Source: Paraphysomonas bandaiensis
Taxonomy: Eukaryota > Protista > Chrysophyceae
Assembly (NCBI GenBank): GCA_965644295.1
Contig: CBFFRP010000641.1
Span: 1 to 12,294 of the forward strand
Direction: 5' to 3'
DNA length: 12,294 nucleotides
Part shown: positions 1-12,294 of the stretch, one piece after another
How positions within the stretch are numbered: the stretch's first letter is position 1
Layout: each line of letters starts with the position of its first letter
Position numbers and translations under genes: made by a program
The notes under the pieces: model-generated
What the model was told of the DNA's origin: nothing
The model's database searches: none
The model's input: the letters and a program-made list of their open reading frames with translations, nothing else

Positions 1-1615
1 GGTACTAAGAGGACATGGTTGAAATTGTCTAAAGTATTTCCTGGACATACAATAACTACGGAAGTTATTCAAGATTTGATTGATCGTTGTCCAATATGCC
101 AGAAACTGAATGCGGGTATGAGTACTTCATTACAAGCGCCGATTAGAGCACTTGACTCAGAGCATTGTCGTCAATTTGTAGGTTTTGATACGCTTACAGT
201 TTCACCGCCGGACAAGTATGGACATTGCTGCATACATGTTGTCAAACAGATGCCTTCTCGTTTAATCGGTCTTTATCCAGCTAAGGATTACAAAGCGGTT
301 GGAGTCGCACGTGCATTGTTCAGTTATTTTGTTACATATGGAATATCAGAAGTTATGATATCAGATCCTGGATCTAATATTACAGCAGAGGTTGTACAAT
401 TGCTTTTGAAATGGTTTGGTGTGCGTTTTCGAATGTCTTTAGTAGATCGACATGAATCAAATATGGTTGAGAGAACTCATCAAGAGACGCTAAGGTTTCT
501 AAGTGCATTGGTGCATGATGAACGTTTACAGGATGTATGGGGAGATCCAGAATGTTACTTACTGATTCAGTTCATTCTTAATGATGAAGTTAGCAGTGAG
601 ACTGGTTTGTCGCCATTTGAGTTTACATTTGGTACTGCTGCTATGCCATACTTTAAATTAACGGATAATGTTAATGTGAGTAGCGCTATGGAGTATATTG
701 CCAAGTTTAATGAACATCTTGAGACGATTCGTGAAATTGCAAATGAGGTTCAGCGTAAGATACAAAACAAGCGTAAATCTAAGACGCCAGTTGAGAGCTT
801 AACCCAATATCAACCGGGCCAACTTGTATTATTCCAATTAAATCCAAAGCGCCACAAGCCTACGAAGTTATATCCTCGTTTTAAGGGACCTTATGAAGTG
901 GTGTCAACTTATAAAGCTGATGTTACATGTGTTCATATTGGTGTCAACTTATAAAGCTGATGTTACATGTGTTCATATTGTCATGCGTTTTGAAGTGGTA
1001 TTGCACATGTCATGGCTTAAACCGTTTTTTGGAACACTTGATGATGCATATCGTGTAGCCCAAATTGATTTCAACCAACATACAGTGCGTTCTATCGTTG
1101 CTCATAGAGGAGATCCTGAAGTGCGTACTACAATGGATTTTCAAGTACAGTTTGAGGATGGTTCTTTGTTGTGGATACCATCATGGTCCCTAGATATTTC
1201 CTCTACTTCACATTTCCAATTATACTGTGAACAACGACCATATCTTTTTCCGTTACTATTTACTGCTACCATGGCTAAAGCTGAACGTACTCGTATGAAA
1301 CGTATTCCTATTGAGGGAGTGTCTCCTGGTCAAACTATTTATGTAGATTTGCGTGCTTGGGGTGCCGATTTTTATGATACACTAGACTTACCGAATTGTT
1401 ATACGACTATTGATGTTGTGGAGTGTAACTATGTACGGTGGGCGGGTCGTCGTAAATTGCGTATTGATCTATACTGCCCTTTGTTTCAGTCTACATATTA
1501 TGAATGGAGTGCCTATGACGTTCATTGCTACGGTCGAGTTACTACATTTGACTCTTCTATTATGGTGTTGGTCGATACGGAGTTTTGCAAGAGATTTCCT
1601 GATATACTCTTGTAA
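1..1615 (+). pseudogene. pol: Gypsy pol C-terminus: integrase-chromodomain, frameshifted by a 40-bp duplication
   Basis: Frame 1 is open from base 1 (GTKRTWLKL...CPICQK, second half of the HHCC zinc finger). Catalytic motifs are FVGFDT, MISDPGSN and SNMVERTH; TGLSPFEFTFG and KLYPRFKGPYEV (GPY/F) follow. Removing one 40-bp copy at 901-980 fuses ORF 19..954 in frame with ORF 893..1615 (HMSWLKPF, then chromodomain VRSIVAHRG...FQVQFEDG..LW), ending at TAA 1613-1615. Confidence 0.92.
901..980 (+). repeat. Perfect 2 x 40-bp tandem duplication
   Basis: gtgtcaacttataaagctgatgttacatgtgttcatattg occurs identically at 901-940 and 941-980. Confidence 0.99.
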
Positions 1616-3032: not shown

Positions 3033-3834
3033 TTATACCAAGTAGTCATCATTATCACCTTGCCACACATCAACCTCATCGTCTCCCTTTATAACTAAAT
3101 CATCAACTTCTACATCAGTTTGTCCTCTTCATACTCAGCTAAAAGTCAATAACATCAGAATACATACCCTTCTCACGATATCTAATTTCTTGTTCTAAGT
3201 CACGATATTCACCCACACTAGACGTTCAGATATTCTACACTCAATGCGCTTATTACATTCCAAACGACGCTTAAGGTAAATGCGACGCTTATTTGTGATA
3301 CTTGCACTTTCACGACGAAGGCACAGCTCACGCATTTTTCCAAAATGGAAACCCATTTTTGGTCATTCGATACCTTAGCTGATAATGTGTAACCTCATGG
3401 TTGTGGACATCCTTAAACCACTTCTGTATATCCGGCAACTCTACTGCTCTACCTTCCTCACTTCTGATACGCCAAACCTTATGTCAAACTTGGAAGATTA
3501 ACAACCTTGAAGAGGGATTCATTACCTCTGCTCGTATAGGACCTGTCCAATCCGAGTTAATGTATTTCATGTGCCCCGGGTATATTGATTCATAGCTGCT
3601 ATGAGGAAGTGTAGTATCCTTGTTATCAACCCATTCTTTCCATAAGCTGTATAGCGTACTAACGCCAATACCTAAATAGTCGCTAGCGCGATTCATGACG
3701 TCAGTAATACTTCTCATTTGATGGCCGTTATAGAAGTCATGACGCATGCACCAAATTAACCTCAAAGACATGCTTATATCATCCATAGACAGAGTAGTAC
3801 CACTACAGCGACTACTGGAACATATAATTTCCAA
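3033..3834 (-). pseudogene. Degenerate IS630/Tc1/mariner-superfamily transposase (DNA-binding part and acidic tail; catalytic core not seen)
   Basis: First HTH is RASDYLGIGVSTLYSLWKEW. Manual translation past the annotated stop gives (V)WRIRSEEGRAVELPDIQKWFKDVHNHEVTHYQLRYRMT, then a 1-nt frameshift in the T5 run at 3356-3360, then KMGFHFGKMRELCLRRESASITNKRRIYLKRR, resembling the second HTH/linker (L.KMGF.F.K...E...I...R..YL). Frameshifted fragments follow, ending in acidic DVEVDDLVIKGDDEVDVWQGDNDDYLV* (TAA 3035-3033). Confidence 0.7.
3478..3525 (-). other. Probable 48-nt spliceosomal intron in the transposase relic
   Basis: Minus strand reads GAG|gtaatg...tgacataag|GTT. The segment contains the in-frame TGA; removing it gives continuous PIRAE-VWRIRSEEG. 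Confidence 0.5.
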
Positions 3835-4786
3835 TGGTATTTATATTGTTGGGTCGGTTTAAAAAAATTCATCAATATTATTAGTACTGCAACATTATAT
3901 TGTTCCCAGCCCTGATATCACTTAATACCTAATTAGTAAAATTGTGATCATCATACTCATCATTTATTCACATTTATGAATATATATTCTCACCACTACC
4001 AGTCATTATTATCAGTTCTTAGATAGACATAGCATTATTTCACTATTCAAAACAATTACGTTTATCTAAACTACTTCATAGCATAATATTATCATTAATT
4101 TGTATAATATAATATTTAAGGATTAATATAATATAATGTCAGTGTGGGAGATATGATATATAATAGTCGGAGGCGCGAGGTCAGCGAGCCCACAGTTTAC
4201 CCTCGAATGCTTTCACAAGAGTTGACAAGTAATTCTAACAATTATAAGTACTATATCGTACACGCAGCGGATGAAGAGGTAGGCCCTGAAATGTTGCGAT
4301 ACGTGAGGACAAATGAGCTAAAACACACCCAATTAGTTTCTTTCTACACCCTAAATTCCAAATACCTCAAAATGGGGGGCTGAGTGTGAGTAGAGAAATA
4401 GAAGCCTAAGAACGTTAGAAGTAATAGAAATTATATAAAATGAAAGAATATATGACTCGCTTTATATATAATATTCTATGATGGTTCTACTGTTCTACTG
4501 CTGAAATGTTGATCGGATGAAACATAGGCAATATTTTATAGCAGGCTATATTATTTAGATATTACACTTTTTAAACACAACTAAGAGCTACTCATCATAG
4601 CTGCAAACCCGCTTTATCACTATTAATCATACTTGTGTGACAGTATAACGGTCAGTAGACACTTTTATCTCACCACGCAATAAGAGATATATGTGGACAG
4701 CTAACCTTGGTATGTTCTAAATGCTCTCGATACCTCATATAATTGGGGATATGTTGAAATACTACACATGACATACTCAGCATTCA

Positions 4787-4805
4787 ATTATTATTGTTAT
4801 TATTA
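4787..4805. repeat. Short imperfect (ATT)n tract downstream of the fibre gene
   Basis: attattattgttattatta. Confidence 0.6.
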
Positions 4806-4892
4806 CTACGCATTTACCACCATGAACTCAGAAAATAACCAAGTAGGCCGGAATGTCGCTCAAAATTCTACAAACTACTACTCAATATTATC

Positions 4893-7800
4893 CTACCTAC
4901 AACTCCCTTCCAAATGTTCAACTCTACTTTCTATGTCTTCAAGTCTCTGTACCTTCGCAATCAAGACCTTAATTTCACTCTCCAAGGATGACAGCTTGTC
5001 GCCATATTCCACTCCCATTGAAGACTGCAAAGATTTTACACGTTCATCGATATAGTCTCTTGCACTTCCAACTGTCAACATATCAGCTTCAACATTCTCA
5101 CTTAACTCGCGTATTGCTTCCAAAAGAACAGGAACCAAAAGAATATAATTAACAGAGTAAAACCCGTTGTGATCAGTTGTAATTATTTCAGGGAAAATCG
5201 GCTTAACTTCTTGAGCAATAACTCCCATTGTGCGACGATCCAGTTCCGATATTTTATCCATAGGGAGACTTTTGTCCCATTTGAAATACACTCCACGAAT
5301 TTTGGATAGCTTTGATAAAACATTTTTCATAGGAGATATATTTGACTTCAGCCTGCGATCAGACGGCACCCAAACGTTAGTATTCGGGTTATATTTATAG
5401 GCCTGACCATAAACAGTTAGACCACTTGTAACAAGCAAACCACCATTCACAGTTAACTTATCATTGAATACGGAATCACCATCAACAGTAAGGCCGTTTC
5501 CAACTTTCAATCCGGCACCAGTAACTGTTAAACCACCTGCGGACTTCAGACCACTACTTGACACAGTTAATCCTGCTGCAACTTTCAAGCCAGAATCATT
5601 CACTGTAAATCCGCCTGTCACATCACCACCTCCAGTGCCAACCTTCAATCCAGCTCCACTTACTGTTAAACCGCCTGTCACATCACCACCACCCGTGGCA
5701 ACCTTCAATCCGGCACCAGTAACACTTAAACCACCTGCGGACTTCAGACCACTACTTGACACAGTTAATCCAGCTGCAACTTTCAAGCCAGAGTCATTCA
5801 CTGTTAAACCGCCTGTCACATCACCACCACCCGTGGCAACCTTCAAACCAGCACCAGTAACAGTCAATCCATCGTCAACCTTCAAGCCAGAATCATTCAC
5901 TGTTAAACCGCCTGTCACATCACCACCACCCGTGGCAACCTTCAAACCAGCGCCAGTAACAGTTAAACCACCTGCGGACTTCAGACCACTACTTGACACA
6001 GTTAATCCTGCTGCAACTTTCAAGCCAGAATCATTAACCGTGAAGCCACCTGTCACATCACCACCTCCAGTACCAACCTTCAAACCAGCTCCACTCACTG
6101 TTAAACCGCCGGTCACATCACCACCACCCGTGGCAACCTTCAAACCAGCACCAGTAACAGTTAAACCACCTGCGGACTTCAGACCACTACTTGACACAGT
6201 TAATCCTGCTGCAACTTTCAAGCCAGAATCATTCACCGTGAAGCCGCCTGTCACATCACCACCTCCAGTGCCAACCTTCAAACCAGCTCCACTTACTGTT
6301 AAACCGCCTGTCACATCACCACCACCCGTGGCAACCTTCAGTCCGGCACCAGTAACAGTCAATCCATCGTCTACCTTCAAGCCAGAATCATTTACTGTGA
6401 AGCCACCTGTCACATCACCACCACCCGTGGCAACCTTAAAACCAGCACCAGTAACAGTTAAACCACCTGCGGACTTCAGACCACTACTTGACACAGTTAA
6501 TCCTGCTGCAACTTTCAAGCCAGAATCATTCACTGTAAATCCGCCTGTCACATCACCACCTCCAGTGCCAACCTTCAAACCAGCTCCACTTACTGTTAAA
6601 CCGCCTGTCACATCACCACCACCCGTGGCAACCTTCAAACCGGCACCGGTAACAGTTAAACCACCTGCGGACTTCAGACCACTACTTGACACAGTTAATC
6701 CTGCTGCAACTTTCAAGCCAGAATCATTCACCGTGAAGCCGCCTGTCACATCACCACCTCCAGTGCCAACCTTCAAACCAGCTCCACTTACTGTTAAACC
6801 GCCTGTCAAATCACCACCACCCGTCGCGACCTTCAAACCAGCACCAGTAACAGTTAATCCATCGTCAACCTTCAAGCCAGAATCATTCACTGTAAAGCCA
6901 CCTGTCACATCACCACCTCCAGTGCCAACCTTCAAGCCAGCTCCACTCACTGTTAAACCGCCGGTCACATCACCACCACCCGTGGCAACCTTCAAACCAG
7001 CACCAGTAACAGTTAAACCACCTGCGGACTTCAGACCACTACTTGACACAGTTAATCCAGCAGCAACTTTCAAGCCAGAATCATTCACCGTGAAGCCACC
7101 TGTCACATCACCACCTCCAGTGCCAACCTTCAAACCAGCTCCACTTACTGTTAAACCGCCTGTCACATCACCACCACCCGTGGCAACCTTCAAACCAGCA
7201 CCAGTAACAGTTAATCCATCGTCAACCTTCAAGCCAGAATCATTCACTGTTAAACCGCCTGTCACATCACCACCACCCGTGGCAACCTTCAAACCAGCGC
7301 CAGTAACAGTTAAACCACCTGCGGACTTCAGACCACTACTTGACACAGTTAATCCTGCTGCAACTTTCAAGCCAGAATCATTCACCGTGAAGCCGCCTGT
7401 CACATCACCACCTCCAGTGCCAACCTTCAAACCAGCTCCACTTACTGTTAAACCGCCTGTCACATCACCACCACCCGTGGCAACCTTCAAACCAGCACCA
7501 GTAACAGTTAATCCATCGTCAACCTTCAAGCCAGAATCATTCACTGTAAAACCACCTGTCACATCACCACCTCCAGTGCCAACCTTCAAGCCAGCTCCAC
7601 TCACTGTTAAACCGCCGGTCACATCACCACCACCCGTGGCAACCTTCAAACCAGCGCCAGAAACTGTTAAACCACCTGCGGACTTCAGACCACTACTTGA
7701 CACAGTTAATCCTGCTGCAACTTTCAAGCCAGAGTCATTCACAGTGAAGCCACCTGTCACATCACCACCGCCAGTGCCAACCTTCAAACCAGCTCCACTT

Positions 7801-10800
7801 ACTGTTAAACCACCTGTCACATCACCACCACCCGTGGCAACCTTTAATCCGGCACCGGTAACTGTTAAACCATCGTCTACCTTCAAGCCAGAATCATTCA
7901 CTGTAAAGCCACCTGTCACATCACCACCACCCGTGGCAACCTTTAAACCAGCACCAGTAACAGTCAATCCATCGTTAACCTTCAAACCAGAATCATTTAC
8001 TGTAAAGCCACCTGTCACATCACCACCACCCGTGGCAACCTTTAAACCAGCACCAGTAACAGTTAAACCACCTGCGGACTTCAGACCACTACTTGACACA
8101 GTTAATCCATCATCAACCTTCAAGCCAGAATCATTTACTGTAAAGCCACCTGTCACATCACCACCACCCGTGGCAACCTTCAAACCAGCACCAGTAACAG
8201 TCAATCCATCGTTCACCTTCAAACCAGAATCATTCACTGTAAAGCCACCTGTCACATCACCACCACCCGTGGCAACCTTCAAACCAGCACCAGTTACAGT
8301 TAAACCGCCTGCGGACTTTAGACCACTACTTGACACAGTTAATCCATCGGCAACCTTCAAACCAGAATCATTTACTGTAAAGCCACCTGTCACATCACCA
8401 CCACCCGTGGCAACCTTCAAACCAGCACCAGTTACAGTTAAGCCGCCTGCAGACTTTAGACCACTTCCAGAAACAGTTAATCCATCAGCAACCTTTAAAC
8501 CAGCACCAGTTACAGTGACACCATCTACAACTTTAAGACCGTCAGCTGATACTGTTAGTCCGTCGCCCGCGATGACCATACCAGCATCATTCAGTGTGAG
8601 GCCACCTGTTGCTCTAATTCCTCCACTTGCAACTGTCAAACCAGTATTCTGCACTGTTATTCCACCAGAAACATAATATCCTCCTGATAGAACAGAGAGC
8701 CCGCCAGACACTTTCAATCCACCAGTCTCAATATTAGTGTTATCTGCATTTATAACAATATTGTCACCAGCATCAATGTCGATATTGTTAGCTGCATCAA
8801 TATCGAGGTCACCACCAGCATTTACAGTAATAGGAGAAGCAGATACGACAGTTATGCCAGTCTGCCTATCGACAAATAGACCAGCATCCTTCGCAGTATC
8901 ATCATCGTACAAAAAGACGCGACCAAAATCATCGGTCCCACTACTCGGAATAAGGAAAATATCACCACCATTACTTGTACCAGAAGCTCCTGAGCTACCA
9001 CCACTAATAATAGAAACACTTCCACCCATTTTACTAGCACTTGAGGTACTACCAGCAGATAAAACTAACTCACCACCTGATCCACTGTTGCCAGATCCTA
9101 CTGTCACATACACTGAACCACCACGTCCACTTGCACTAGATCCACTGCCAATGTACAACGAACCACTGTTGCCCTTACTAGAAGTACCAGTACTCAACAC
9201 CAATTGACCACTCACACCAGATGATCCAGCATTAGCAGTCAACAAGGACAATGCTCCACTGGATCGCTGTGAACTGAAACCAGTTACAATTGTCAAACGA
9301 CCACCACTCTCCGATGATGACTCGCCAGCTGACAACATCAACTCACCACCTGATCCACTGTTGCCAGATCCTACTGTCACATACACTGAACCACCACGAC
9401 CACTTGCACCAGATCCACTGCCAATGTACAACGAACCACTGTTGCCTCGACTAGAAGTACCAGTACTCAACACCAATTGACCACTCACACCAGATGATCC
9501 AGCATTAGCAGTCAACAAAGACAACGCTCCACTGCTACCCACAGATCCAGAACCAGTAACAATTGTCAAACGACCACCACTCTCCGAGGATGACTCGCCA
9601 GCTGACAACATCAACTCACCACCTGATCCACTGTTGCCGGATCCTACTGTCACATACACTGAACCACCACGACCACTTGCACCAGATCCACTACCAATGT
9701 ACAACGAACCACTGTTGCCTCGACTAGAAGTACCAGTACTCAACACCAATTGACCACTCACACCAGATGATCCAGCATTAGCAGTCAACAAAGACAATGC
9801 TCCACTGCTGCCACGTGTTCCTGAACCAGTTACAATTGTCAAACGACCACCACTCTCCGAGGATGACTCGCCAGCTGACAACATCAACTCACCACCTGAT
9901 CCACTGTTGCCAGATCCTACTGTCACATACACTGAACCACCACGACCACTTGCACCAGATCCACTGCCAATGTACAACGAACCACTGTTGCCTCGACTAG
10001 AAGTACCAGTACTCAACACCAATTGACCACTCACACCAGACGATCCCGCATTAGCAGTCAACAAAGACAACGCTCCACTGCTACCCACAGATCCAGAACC
10101 AGTAACAATTGTCAAACGACCACCACTCTCCGAGGATGACTCGCCAGCTGACAACATCAACTCACCACCAGATCCACTGTTGCCAGATCCTACTGTCACA
10201 TACACTGAACCACCACGACCACTTGCACCAGATCCACTGCCAATGTACAACGAACCACTGTTGCCCTTACTAGAAGTACCAGTACTCAACACCAATTGAC
10301 CACTCACACCTGTAGAACCAGAATTCGCGGTAAGTAGTGATAATTCTCCGCTAGTTCCTACAGAAGATCCTGTCTGTACTGATATATGGCCACCAGTAGC
10401 AACTGTGTCGGATATACCAGACGACATAATCAAAGATCCAGCAGCACCAGAATTTCCAGAGCCAATTGAAATTTTAATATTTCCTCCTCTTCCGGATGAC
10501 GCTGTATTCGTCCCAATAAAAATAGCACCAGAATTACCATCCGTGGATACGCCAGTACTCAAGACAATTAAACCACTCACACCATCATTGCCAGAATCCT
10601 CAGTACGTATTTCCAACGCACCACTGTCGACATTACCCTGGCCACTTCTGAGCGAAAAATGCCCTCCATTCTTGGCAGACGAGGATCCAGCTTGTAAGAT
10701 TAACTCACCACCATTACCACTATTTCCTGCACCAACAGTAATATGAATATTTCCACCTTTACCCGAACTCGAGTTCGCAGTTCCAATAAATATTGCACCA

Positions 10801-12294
10801 GTATTTCCAGTTCTACTGGTACCTGTGCTCAATACTATTAATCCACTATGTCCTGTTGTTCCCGCATTAGCAGTCATAATGGTCAACGCCCCACTAGACG
10901 CAGCGGCACCATAACCACTTGATATTGATAGTCTTCCACCAACTGAATTAGTGGCCGTAGTTGTTCCAGAAGTTAATGTTAATTCTCCACCAGATCCGCT
11001 ATCACCGCTTCCCACAGTAATTGTCACACTACCGCCTCTACCAGATGTAGAAACACCAGATCCGATATGAATAGTCCCACTGTTACCTTTCGTGGCAGAG
11101 CCAGTACTTAAAATCATCATTCCCGATATACCAGCAGTTCCGGAATCCTGAGTCTGGATAACCAATGCTCCACTGCTCTTGCTAGTTCCTTTACCCGAAC
11201 TGATCCAAACACGGCCTCCGGTGTCAGCTGATGTTTGCCCAGCCGAAAGATACAATTCCCCACCACTGCCTAGGTCACCCGAACCAGCGGTCACATAAAT
11301 AGCCCCACCAGCACCGTTTGAAGAATCACCTGTACCGATCAAGATATCACCGGAGTTACCACTTGTCGCAACCCCAGTACTCAAAGCGATCAAACCAGAA
11401 ACACCCGAACTACCAGCATCAGAACTATGCAGAAGAAGTTGACCGCTGCTCTTATTTAAATTCCTACCAGACAATATAGTAACATCGCCTCCAGTTGTAA
11501 CATCACTACCAGACCCAGTAACAGAACCAGCAGACAGATAAAGATTACCTCCGGAGCCACTATCACCAGACCCTACAGTTACATAAACCGCACCACCAGA
11601 ACCCTCAGAACCATCACCAGTACCGATGTAAATATTTCCACTATTACCTCTACTAGCATCACCTGAACTTAAAACCATCATGCCACTAACACCAGACAAA
11701 CCAGCTGAAGCAGTCTGTAAAACTAAGCTACCACTAGATCTAGAGTCAGACGAACCACTAGTTATGGACAACCGCCCACCAGTAAAGGCACCTGCAGCGT
11801 TACCAGCTGACAACATCAACTCACCACCTGATCCACTGTTGCCAGATCCTACTGTCACATACACTGAACCACCACGTCCACTTGATGCAGATCCACTGCC
11901 AATGTACAACGAACCACTGTTGCCTCGACTAGAAGTACCAGTACTCAACACCAATTGACCACTCACACCAGATGATCCAGCATTAGCAGTCAACAAAGAC
12001 AGCGCTCCACTGCTGCCACGAGACCCAGAACCAGTTACAATTGTCAAACGACCACCACTCTCCGAGGATGACTCGCCAGCTGACAACATCAACTCACCAC
12101 CTGATCCACTGTTGCCAGATCCTACTGTCACATACACTGACCCACCACGACCACTTGCACCAGATCCACTGCCAATATACAACGAACCACTGTTGCCTCG
12201 ACTAGAAGTACCAGTACTCAACACCAATTGACCACTCACACCAGATGATCCAGCATTAGCAGTCAACAAGGACAATGCTCCACTGGATCGCTCT
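4893..12294 (-). CDS. Giant Gly/Ser-rich repetitive beta-fibre protein with C-terminal Peptidase_S74 intramolecular chaperone (tail-fibre-like), 5'-partial
   Basis: Single stop-free frame from the window edge to TAG at 4895-4893. The track's start at 12275 is a TTG Leu inside a repeat, and the frame continues upstream as ERSSGA. Repeat-unit lengths are multiples of 3 and differences between copies are mostly synonymous. The non-repetitive C-terminus has S74 motifs. Confidence 0.93.
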   Translation of the reverse strand, partial: ERSSGALSLLTANAGSSGVSGQLVLSTGTSSRGNSGSLYIGSGSGASGRGGSVYVTVGSGNSGSGGELMLSAGESSSESGGRLTIVTGSGSRGSSGALSLLTANAGSSGVSGQLVLSTGTSSRGNSGSLYIGSGSASSGRGGSVYVTVGSGNSGSGGELMLSAGNAAGAFTGGRLSITSGSSDSRSSGSLVLQTASAGLSGVSGMMVLSSGDASRGNSGNIYIGTGDGSEGSGGAVYVTVGSGDSGSGGNLYLSAGSVTGSGSDVTTGGDVTILSGRNLNKSSGQLLLHSSDAGSSGVSGLIALSTGVATSGNSGDILIGTGDSSNGAGGAIYVTAGSGDLGSGGELYLSAGQTSADTGGRVWISSGKGTSKSSGALVIQTQDSGTAGISGMMILSTGSATKGNSGTIHIGSGVSTSGRGGSVTITVGSGDSGSGGELTLTSGTTTATNSVGGRLSISSGYGAAASSGALTIMTANAGTTGHSGLIVLSTGTSRTGNTGAIFIGTANSSSGKGGNIHITVGAGNSGNGGELILQAGSSSAKNGGHFSLRSGQGNVDSGALEIRTEDSGNDGVSGLIVLSTGVSTDGNSGAIFIGTNTASSGRGGNIKISIGSGNSGAAGSLIMSSGISDTVATGGHISVQTGSSVGTSGELSLLTANSGSTGVSGQLVLSTGTSSKGNSGSLYIGSGSGASGRGGSVYVTVGSGNSGSGGELMLSAGESSSESGGRLTIVTGSGSVGSSGALSLLTANAGSSGVSGQLVLSTGTSSRGNSGSLYIGSGSGASGRGGSVYVTVGSGNSGSGGELMLSAGESSSESGGRLTIVTGSGTRGSSGALSLLTANAGSSGVSGQLVLSTGTSSRGNSGSLYIGSGSGASGRGGSVYVTVGSGNSGSGGELMLSAGESSSESGGRLTIVTGSGSVGSSGALSLLTANAGSSGVSGQLVLSTGTSSRGNSGSLYIGSGSGASGRGGSVYVTVGSGNSGSGGELMLSAGESSSESGGRLTIVTGFSSQRSSGALSLLTANAGSSGVSGQLVLSTGTSSKGNSGSLYIGSGSSASGRGGSVYVTVGSGNSGSGGELVLSAGSTSSASKMGGSVSIISGGSSGASGTSNGGDIFLIPSSGTDDFGRVFLYDDDTAKDAGLFVDRQTGITVVSASPITVNAGGDLDIDAANNIDIDAGDNIVINADNTNIETGGLKVSGGLSVLSGGYYVSGGITVQNTGLTVASGGIRATGGLTLNDAGMVIAGDGLTVSADGLKVVDGVTVTGAGLKVADGLTVSGSGLKSAGGLTVTGAGLKVATGGGDVTGGFTVNDSGLKVADGLTVSSSGLKSAGGLTVTGAGLKVATGGGDVTGGFTVNDSGLKVNDGLTVTGAGLKVATGGGDVTGGFTVNDSGLKVDDGLTVSSSGLKSAGGLTVTGAGLKVATGGGDVTGGFTVNDSGLKVNDGLTVTGAGLKVATGGGDVTGGFTVNDSGLKVDDGLTVTGAGLKVATGGGDVTGGLTVSGAGLKVGTGGGDVTGGFTVNDSGLKVAAGLTVSSSGLKSAGGLTVSGAGLKVATGGGDVTGGLTVSGAGLKVGTGGGDVTGGFTVNDSGLKVDDGLTVTGAGLKVATGGGDVTGGLTVSGAGLKVGTGGGDVTGGFTVNDSGLKVAAGLTVSSSGLKSAGGLTVTGAGLKVATGGGDVTGGLTVNDSGLKVDDGLTVTGAGLKVATGGGDVTGGLTVSGAGLKVGTGGGDVTGGFTVNDSGLKVAAGLTVSSSGLKSAGGLTVTGAGLKVATGGGDVTGGLTVSGAGLKVGTGGGDVTGGFTVNDSGLKVDDGLTVTGAGLKVATGGGDLTGGLTVSGAGLKVGTGGGDVTGGFTVNDSGLKVAAGLTVSSSGLKSAGGLTVTGAGLKVATGGGDVTGGLTVSGAGLKVGTGGGDVTGGFTVNDSGLKVAAGLTVSSSGLKSAGGLTVTGAGFKVATGGGDVTGGFTVNDSGLKVDDGLTVTGAGLKVATGGGDVTGGLTVSGAGLKVGTGGGDVTGGFTVNDSGLKVAAGLTVSSSGLKSAGGLTVTGAGLKVATGGGDVTGGLTVSGAGLKVGTGGGDVTGGFTVNDSGLKVAAGLTVSSSGLKSAGGLTVTGAGLKVATGGGDVTGGLTVNDSGLKVDDGLTVTGAGLKVATGGGDVTGGLTVNDSGLKVAAGLTVSSSGLKSAGGLSVTGAGLKVATGGGDVTGGLTVSGAGLKVGTGGGDVTGGFTVNDSGLKVAAGLTVSSSGLKSAGGLTVTGAGLKVGNGLTVDGDSVFNDKLTVNGGLLVTSGLTVYGQAYKYNPNTNVWVPSDRRLKSNISPMKNVLSKLSKIRGVYFKWDKSLPMDKISELDRRTMGVIAQEVKPIFPEIITTDHNGFYSVNYILLVPVLLEAIRELSENVEADMLTVGSARDYIDERVKSLQSSMGVEYGDKLSSLESEIKVLIAKVQRLEDIESRVEHLEGSCR
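4896..5363 (-). other. Peptidase_S74 / intramolecular chaperone autoprocessing domain plus coiled coil (156 aa from the catalytic Ser)
   Basis: PSDRRLKSNI (Ser codon 5363-5361, Lys codon 5348-5346), IRGVYFKW, MGVIAQEV..IFPEII, YSVNY..LVPVLLEAIREL, then heptads LSSLESEIKVLIAKVQRLEDIESRVEHLE. Confidence 0.92.
5490..8720 (-). repeat. Coding modular tandem array B (39-bp and 60-bp modules; 13 and 20 aa)
   Basis: Modules are GLTV(T/S)GAGLKV(A/G)TGGGDVTG, G(F/L)TVNDSGLKV(DD/AA/AD/ND) and GLTVSSSGLKSAG. Copies are near-identical over ~5500-8510 and degenerate over ~8510-8720. Confidence 0.97.
9030..12294 (-). repeat. Coding tandem array A (273-bp / 91-aa unit of six 15-16-aa sub-repeats, about 12 units visible)
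   Basis: The marker accaattgacc recurs with its caattg at 9201, 9474, 9747, 10020, 10293, then 11952 and 12225 (273-bp spacing). About six diverged units lie between 10293 and 11952. Confidence 0.97.

Follow-up and report, generated by a model that had tools for sequence, protein, structure and literature searches.

A giant S74-terminated beta-repeat gene of Paraphysomonas bandaiensis and its relatives bearing a mastigoneme-type head

The stretch of DNA analysed here (the window) comprises 12,294 nucleotides of the chrysophyte Paraphysomonas bandaiensis (contig CBFFRP010000641.1, assembly GCA_965644295.1), and its principal feature is the 3' part of a giant gene on the minus strand, laid out as follows.

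4893 to 12293, minus strand: 3' part of a giant open reading frame (ORF) located by frame scan, 2,466 aa visible, intron-free in view
11799 to 12293, minus strand: array A, homogenized 91-aa units (aa 1-165), many-copy in DNA runs, running on beyond the window end
10314 to 11798, minus strand: array A, diverged units (aa 166-660) at single-copy depth, covered end to end by one contig of 1,552 bp (run X14)
8979 to 10313, minus strand: array A, 4.6 homogenized 273-bp units and closing strands (aa 661-1105)
8724 to 8978, minus strand: unique A-B linker, which aligns with the same junction in the OCM-headed proteins P0003, P0006, P0057 and P0100
5424 to 8723, minus strand: array B (aa 1191-2290), some 160 strands of 6-7 aa with the pattern Gly-x-hydrophobic-x-Val, a predicted triple-beta-helix shaft
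5094 to 5363, minus strand: Peptidase S74/ICA domain, Ser2311 (5361-5363) and Lys2316 (5346-5348) retained
4896 to 5093, minus strand: C-terminal long helix, a predicted coiled coil (helix 219-301 of the model)
4809 to 4892, minus strand: likely 3' UTR, a weak hint from RNA contigs of two studies that end here as against DNA contigs that continue

The frame is as uninterrupted as the first-pass annotation had claimed (more than 2460 aa): 2,466 stop-free codons precede a stop at 4893-4895, and the frame is still open at the window edge, such that its 5' end lies outside. The other two minus-strand frames contain 267 and 193 stops, and the longest frame in 200 shuffles reached 177 aa at most. 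The best 19-residue hydropathy in the visible protein is 1.44, with neither a membrane segment nor a DNA-binding segment seen. A Pro-rich plus-strand ORF of 1,087 aa (5413-8676) was rejected as an antisense shadow of array B, as silent-site variation tracks the minus frame. The neighbouring sequence had been read as a Gypsy chromovirus beside a Tc1-like relic. The former stands as a Gypsy-type integrase, matched below Pfam cut-offs (rve, E 3e-4; SH3_Tf2-1, E 0.005), but a chromodomain was not detected, leaving the chromovirus label unconfirmed; the latter label is likewise unconfirmed, with no transposase match in the three pieces searched. Both regions are multi-copy in DNA runs. The integrase end occupies window positions 1-1615, where its frame is broken at a perfect 40-bp tandem duplication (899-980), and positions 1640-2870 and 3198-3840 hold very high-copy non-coding repeats together with a decayed minus-strand coding relic that lacks a Pfam match; short RNA contigs match both the repeats and the relic.

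The stretch is contained in 20 public runs, including marine polyA metatranscriptomes, and the comparisons among runs made here rest on contigs, with run X20 (share 0.18) left aside. Across positions 4400-5400, which had been singled out beforehand as the place to look for a chimeric join, the junction between the gene and the transposon side is bridged by contigs covering 4375-5552 (run X1, 0 differences) and 3769-5534 (run X7), and no such join was found. In two studies, RNA contigs break off roughly 80 nt beyond the stop codon (at 4809 and 4820), where DNA contigs continue, and positions 4101-4510 are without RNA cover; the RNA contig ends are a weak hint of the 3' end of the transcript. 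Together, the bridging DNA contigs and the RNA contigs that stop just past the stop codon argue for a host gene rather than a chimera or a virus. Of the origins offered by the first-pass annotation, it is thus the host eukaryotic gene that the bridged junction favours, as do relatives with GT-AG introns and a stramenopile head (below). The A-linker-B junction is likewise bridged, in runs X3, X10, X12, X14 and X17, and the homogenized arrays are spanned by none of the contigs listed. At 8404-8500, contigs that are 89-90% identical to the window and much deeper in the RNA-like runs X10 and X17 indicate a second, possibly more abundant B-repeat paralogue.

Two beta-strand/Gly-turn arrays with essentially no Pro or Cys had been described, and both are borne out as arrays A and B, in which neither residue occurs; the linker between them contains 2 Pro. 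Array A (aa 1-1105) consists of some 72 strands of 15 aa, organized in a six-strand unit of 91 aa (273 bp) that is present 12 times, with two homogenized blocks flanking a diverged block. Array B (aa 1191-2290) is built of 6-7-aa units with mosaic higher-order periods of 13, 20, 33 and 66. When the four A units that most resemble one another are aligned in pairs, five of the six pairs have synonymous to non-synonymous codon differences of 8-9:1-2, 7:4, 6:4 or 3:5, and a B peptide repeated identically in 16 copies can be encoded by as many as 12 codon strings. As the copies differ mainly at silent sites, the arrays are constrained as protein and are not assembly stutter. The visible protein contains 22 N-glycosylation sequons, mostly in array B, and Ser and Thr make up 32% of array A.

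Single-chain models of A and B contain no intra-chain sheet (A model: pLDDT 76, pTM 0.61). When compared with 48,161 chains, the A model gave four weak matches (Z 2.4-4.2), all to phage-type hyaluronidase or tailspike chains, which are trimeric beta-helices. The sheet-free model and these weak matches fit an intertwined trimer without proving it, and the protein probably forms a long trimeric fibre. A Foldseek search of the A model against the PDB returned 0 matches and the A profile made one chance match to PDB sequences, neither of which implies a novel fold. In the ESM Atlas, array A fell with three unnamed clusters at 0.97, of which one is automatically named as S74-containing and one is eukaryotic; recognition was low (955 vs 2300), such that this is a lead only.

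The terminal S74 domain proposed from the letters alone is recovered by profile search: aa 2311-2370 match Pfam PF13884 with 51 bits (E 1.6e-13), the curated cut-off being 22. Its Ser-x4-Lys pair is present (S2311, K2316); across 35 aligned rows, the Lys is invariant and the Ser is retained in 90% or more. The catalytic role of this pair is known from K1F and MYRF. The predicted model of the domain matches the ICA domain of MYRF (7DC3) with a Foldseek E of 3e-6 (Z 8.6, rmsd 1.9, 100 aa) and 3GW6 with Z 7.2, and also matches the T5 fibre chaperone. A long helix follows the ICA fold in the model (residues 219-301), on which a Trimer_CC match falls below cut-off (E 0.026). By sequence and by predicted fold, then, the visible protein belongs with the S74/ICA class, having the PF13884 match, the Ser-x4-Lys pair and an ICA fold with trailing helix, and its S74 domain is predicted, by analogy, to cut itself off at Ser2311-Lys2316.

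This C-terminal layout recalls the ICA fibres and tailspikes of phages (3GW6; T5 L-fibre, 4UW8; long tail fibre distal subunit, 6F45; neck appendage, 3GUD), which have in common a C-terminal S74 domain, the Ser-x4-Lys pair, a trailing helix and a beta-rich shaft upstream. Here, however, the gene is nuclear and belongs to the host, its relatives are secreted and bear introns, and the shaft is a pure homogenized repeat with no recognizable enzyme or receptor-binding tip. The best fold match of the C-terminus remains the ICA domain of MYRF/MrfA (Z 8.6), and Pro-Ser-Asp occupies the predicted cut site. MYRF is a membrane-bound transcription factor, from which the visible protein differs in having no DNA-binding or membrane segment seen.

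Searching longer proteins with the A region yielded 11 matches; HMMER, run in full, produced 898 at E 0.001, 150 of them listed. Among 114 other proteins with at least two A units, mostly fragments, a B array follows A in five records (four clusters) only, namely P0003, P0006/P0023, P0057 and P0100, and all five carry an OCM head; by comparison, none of the 18 headless A proteins longer than 1,000 aa has a B array. The order in P0003, P0006, P0057, P0098 and P0100 is a leader, a Cys-rich head, a short B array and four A units, followed, where the record is complete, by a linker, a long B array, S74 and helix; P0006, P0057 and P0100 are 2,228-2,254 aa long, and P0003 and P0098 are incomplete. 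These headed relatives have four A units, and the window no fewer than 12. A hydrophobic leader is present at 11 of the 11 N-termini examined among the relatives. In PDB 9UFE, the tubular mastigoneme structure, every one of the six chains (209-748 aa, none of the six matched by the A profile) is matched by the heads, OCM5 and chain BA over their full length (P0006, E 6e-37 to OCM5 and 1.5e-34; P0100, E 8.7e-40). Full-length relatives thus resemble the OCM1-6/PnMas1-3/Sig subunits in starting with a complete Cys-rich EGF head of OCM5 type. This link to the tubular-mastigoneme (OCM/Mas) family, which the first-pass annotation did not draw, emerged through the A-B relatives and is the main lead from the locus. 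Judged by these relatives, the gene in the window probably has a head of its own, in the region outside the window.

Restricted to proteins of 1,225-3,899 aa, the head search gave 40 matches; nine of these, two Ectocarpus clusters among them, combine EGF with S74 domains, and 23 are vertebrate tenascin-like proteins, matched via their EGF repeats. From a motif scan of metagenomes (311 stretches confirmed, 79 loci kept), 16 of the 79 loci encode a head followed by S74 on the same strand; four were examined, and all four show GT-AG introns. Named members of the head-plus-fibre family come from Ectocarpus (with S74) and MAST-4 (without S74). GTDB (185,579 prokaryote genomes) yielded a single occurrence of the head, on a MAG contig of 1.8 kb that probably represents contamination. 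JGI metagenomes were scanned for sequences closely related to the C-terminus itself, and none of 153 pattern matches was confirmed. By BLAST, the best S74 neighbours of named architecture are head-linked (99 and 96 bits). In a tree of 86 of 96 S74 rows (111 columns; 10 partial or nearly identical rows omitted), the window's domain lies outside a clade that holds 20 of the 24 head-linked S74 rows, and pairs with two unnamed fragments consisting of B and S74; the tree is poorly resolved, with 35 of 83 branches open and bootstraps unsettled, and neither orthology nor a donor is derivable from it.

Tripartite hairs reverse the thrust of the flagellum and define the stramenopiles, one of the largest groups of eukaryotes. 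They bear terminal and lateral filaments (PMC2108286), and filaments are described in Bouck (1969) and Bouck (1971). PnMas1 and PnMas2 have been placed in the shaft (bioRxiv 10.64898/2026.09.11.750887), an Ectocarpus mas1 hair-subunit knockout has been made (editorial PMC13109109), and PMC12221091 and PMC8577464 hold no decisive addition. In the literature covered, known hair proteins belong to the shaft and none is named for the fine filaments. A fusion of a mastigoneme head with S74 was not described in the literature searched, the scope of which stops short of the 9UFE paper and Harada et al. (2026), both of which may bear on the matter. What appears new is therefore the joining of a hair-subunit head to a phage-type self-folding fibre, giant repeat fibrils with an ICA domain being already known in protists.

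On this basis we consider it an evenly balanced proposition that the gene encodes a secreted, headed, self-chaperoned triple-beta-helix fibre which forms a terminal or lateral filament on the tripartite hairs of the flagellum, a reading suggested by sequence kinship and by analogy. In its favour, fibre-bearing heads separate from most short heads of shaft type in a head tree (SH-aLRT 96, below); against it, the window's S74 domain falls outside the clade with most head-linked S74 rows, and A repeats also turn up in headless proteins. A signal peptide, as in the relatives, would direct the chain to the ER, where hairs are built. Three C-terminal coiled coils and S74 domains would then trimerize and start folding of the shaft from its C-terminal end, as phage and MYRF ICA domains suggest, after which the Ser2311-Lys2316 pair, observed in the visible protein, would remove the chaperone. 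Arrays B and A would form a thin rod, probably glycosylated, and the N-terminal head may dock into the hair tube of short paralogues, leaving the rod to project; this docking is the weakest step of the scheme. If correct, phage or bacterial fibre hardware has been built into a eukaryotic organelle, and the head-plus-fibre family, of which the visible ORF is an unusually long member, supplies named candidates for the fine filaments and a length rule that can be compared with electron microscopy. The S74 term was absent from the supplements of two zoospore proteomes (PMC12223298, 3 files; PMC12221091, 4 files), the tables of which may omit domain names.

Repeat number bears directly on that length rule. 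Taking 4.8 Å per strand per chain, as implied by the alveolate fibril protein TLP-12 (9.6 Å per two strands), we estimate the visible part of the fibre at about 115 nm. Sequence like the 273-bp A unit, at 9067-10310 and 11799-12294, is the high-depth part in three DNA runs, in which contig depth summed over A units, which is not a copy number, exceeds single-copy depth by a factor of hundreds. Scaled roughly to array B, this suggests some 170-350 A units in the genome, and only about 3 in the RNA-like run X14. The high depth reflects either one gene of 15,000-30,000 codons or many A-rich paralogues, and the rod could possibly reach several hundred nm were the genome's remaining A units part of the same gene. 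A bolder generalization, to which we attach a chance somewhat short of even, is that the fine terminal and lateral hair filaments consist of triple-beta-helix fibres of the phage tail-fibre kind, each joined to a hair subunit and dependent for its folding on an S74 chaperone that cleaves itself off, with repeat number setting their length, and that the visible gene may give a filament of up to about 1 micrometre from one chain of tens of thousands of residues.

Kinship of the head with hair subunits does not establish location. The same headed, secreted trimeric fibre might work off the flagellum, in surface threads, a stalk, a lorica, mucilage fibrils or adhesion to prey or substrate, with the head serving only to nucleate or anchor it, and although we regard this as rather unlikely, several observations lend it substance. 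Family members range from about 700 to 2,700 aa, and their length and shaft type vary more than a single hair part might need. Further, fibre-bearing heads group apart from those of the shaft subunits, which, at 209-748 aa, have no beta-repeat shaft or S74 in the searches made: in a quick tree of 71 heads, in which no 9UFE sequence was included, a branch with SH-aLRT 96 parts 25 fibre-less rows from 46 rows that contain all 28 fibre-bearing heads. The remainder of the 46 comprises seven rows labelled short, four other long rows and seven cut rows, and several of the seven short rows end at an intron with B motifs downstream; the five A-bearing heads fall within one group of seven (support 91). 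Set against a site off the flagellum are the full-length matches of the head to subunits solved within the hair tube, and the named carriers, Ectocarpus and MAST-4, which are stramenopiles that bear hairs at some stage of life. Should the fibres nonetheless sit elsewhere, they would still constitute a widespread and undescribed class of protist surface fibre.

A further departure from the proposed hair filament would dispense with the head, and cast the gene as a giant glycofibril of 15,000-30,000 residues, similar to TLP-12, in which array A is hugely expanded and the link to hairs was lost or never present. The TLP-12 preprint (bioRxiv 10.1101/2025.09.30.679562) describes giant repeat fibrils with a predicted C-terminal ICA domain in alveolates; together with candidates from Amoebophrya (A0A8J1ZHD7, 19,853 aa), they share with the present protein a giant Gly/Ser repeat, a predicted C-terminal ICA domain and the triple beta-helix proposed for its shaft. 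The opinion of the first-pass annotation that no characterized eukaryotic protein has this layout was accordingly too strong, given that such fibrils are in print, albeit with a different repeat. The extreme A-unit depth, the Ser- and Thr-rich composition of array A and the existence of headless A polyproteins with internal S74 domains (P0005, P0008) all suit a headless giant. However, the additional copies behind that depth may sit in other genes, array B is absent from headless A proteins, and great length is compatible with a head. TLP-12 also has a 12-residue GSxxSx7 repeat, in contrast to the 15/91- and 6-7-residue repeats here; this motif has 0 tandem matches in the visible protein, where period-12 identity is at background, and no hair-type head is reported for TLP-12 in the accessible text of that preprint. 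We therefore judge a headless giant improbable. Headless A repeats occur in oomycetes (Lagenidium, Aphanomyces), the green alga Chloropicon and phage-like proteins, such that array A alone does not point to hairs.

That the ORF is instead an endogenized giant-virus or phage fibre gene, or a bacterial contig misassembled onto the transposon region, is very improbable and largely refuted: the S74 domain does match 564 phage records (identity up to about 44% among the matches listed) and the A model one uncultured phage protein (E 5e-6, TM 0.37), but the junction is bridged, scores of 85-110 bits for the closest S74 relatives exceed the 69 bits of the top-scoring of five phage rows, third-position GC is alike in the ORF (0.31) and the retroelement (0.29), the sequence is present in polyA metatranscriptomes, no viral gene lies in the window, relatives have introns, and IMG/VR gave 0 relatives in pattern scans with two queries (A region; head alignment), which are sensitive to close or motif-sharing relatives only.

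Several further arrangements of these modules were encountered. Internal S74 domains occur in the headless A proteins P0005 (three copies), P0008, P0173, P0189, P0110, P0150 and P0180, which are likely to be self-cutting fibre polyproteins; these domains form their own clade (99/97), in which the one named member is an oomycete and several copies lack the Ser. Long proteins with A-type repeats and neither head nor S74 are found in Chloropicon roscoffensis (P0009/P0024, WZN60016.1) and in a cluster of unnamed marine contigs (P0004). Among the metagenome loci, L038, L040, L042 and L047 each hold two OCM-head genes arranged head to head, and L013 holds two S74 genes arranged tail to tail. Finally, in the long proteins P0090 (Cafeteria roenbergensis), P0092 and P0079, the OCM head lies near the C-terminus and not at the N-terminus.
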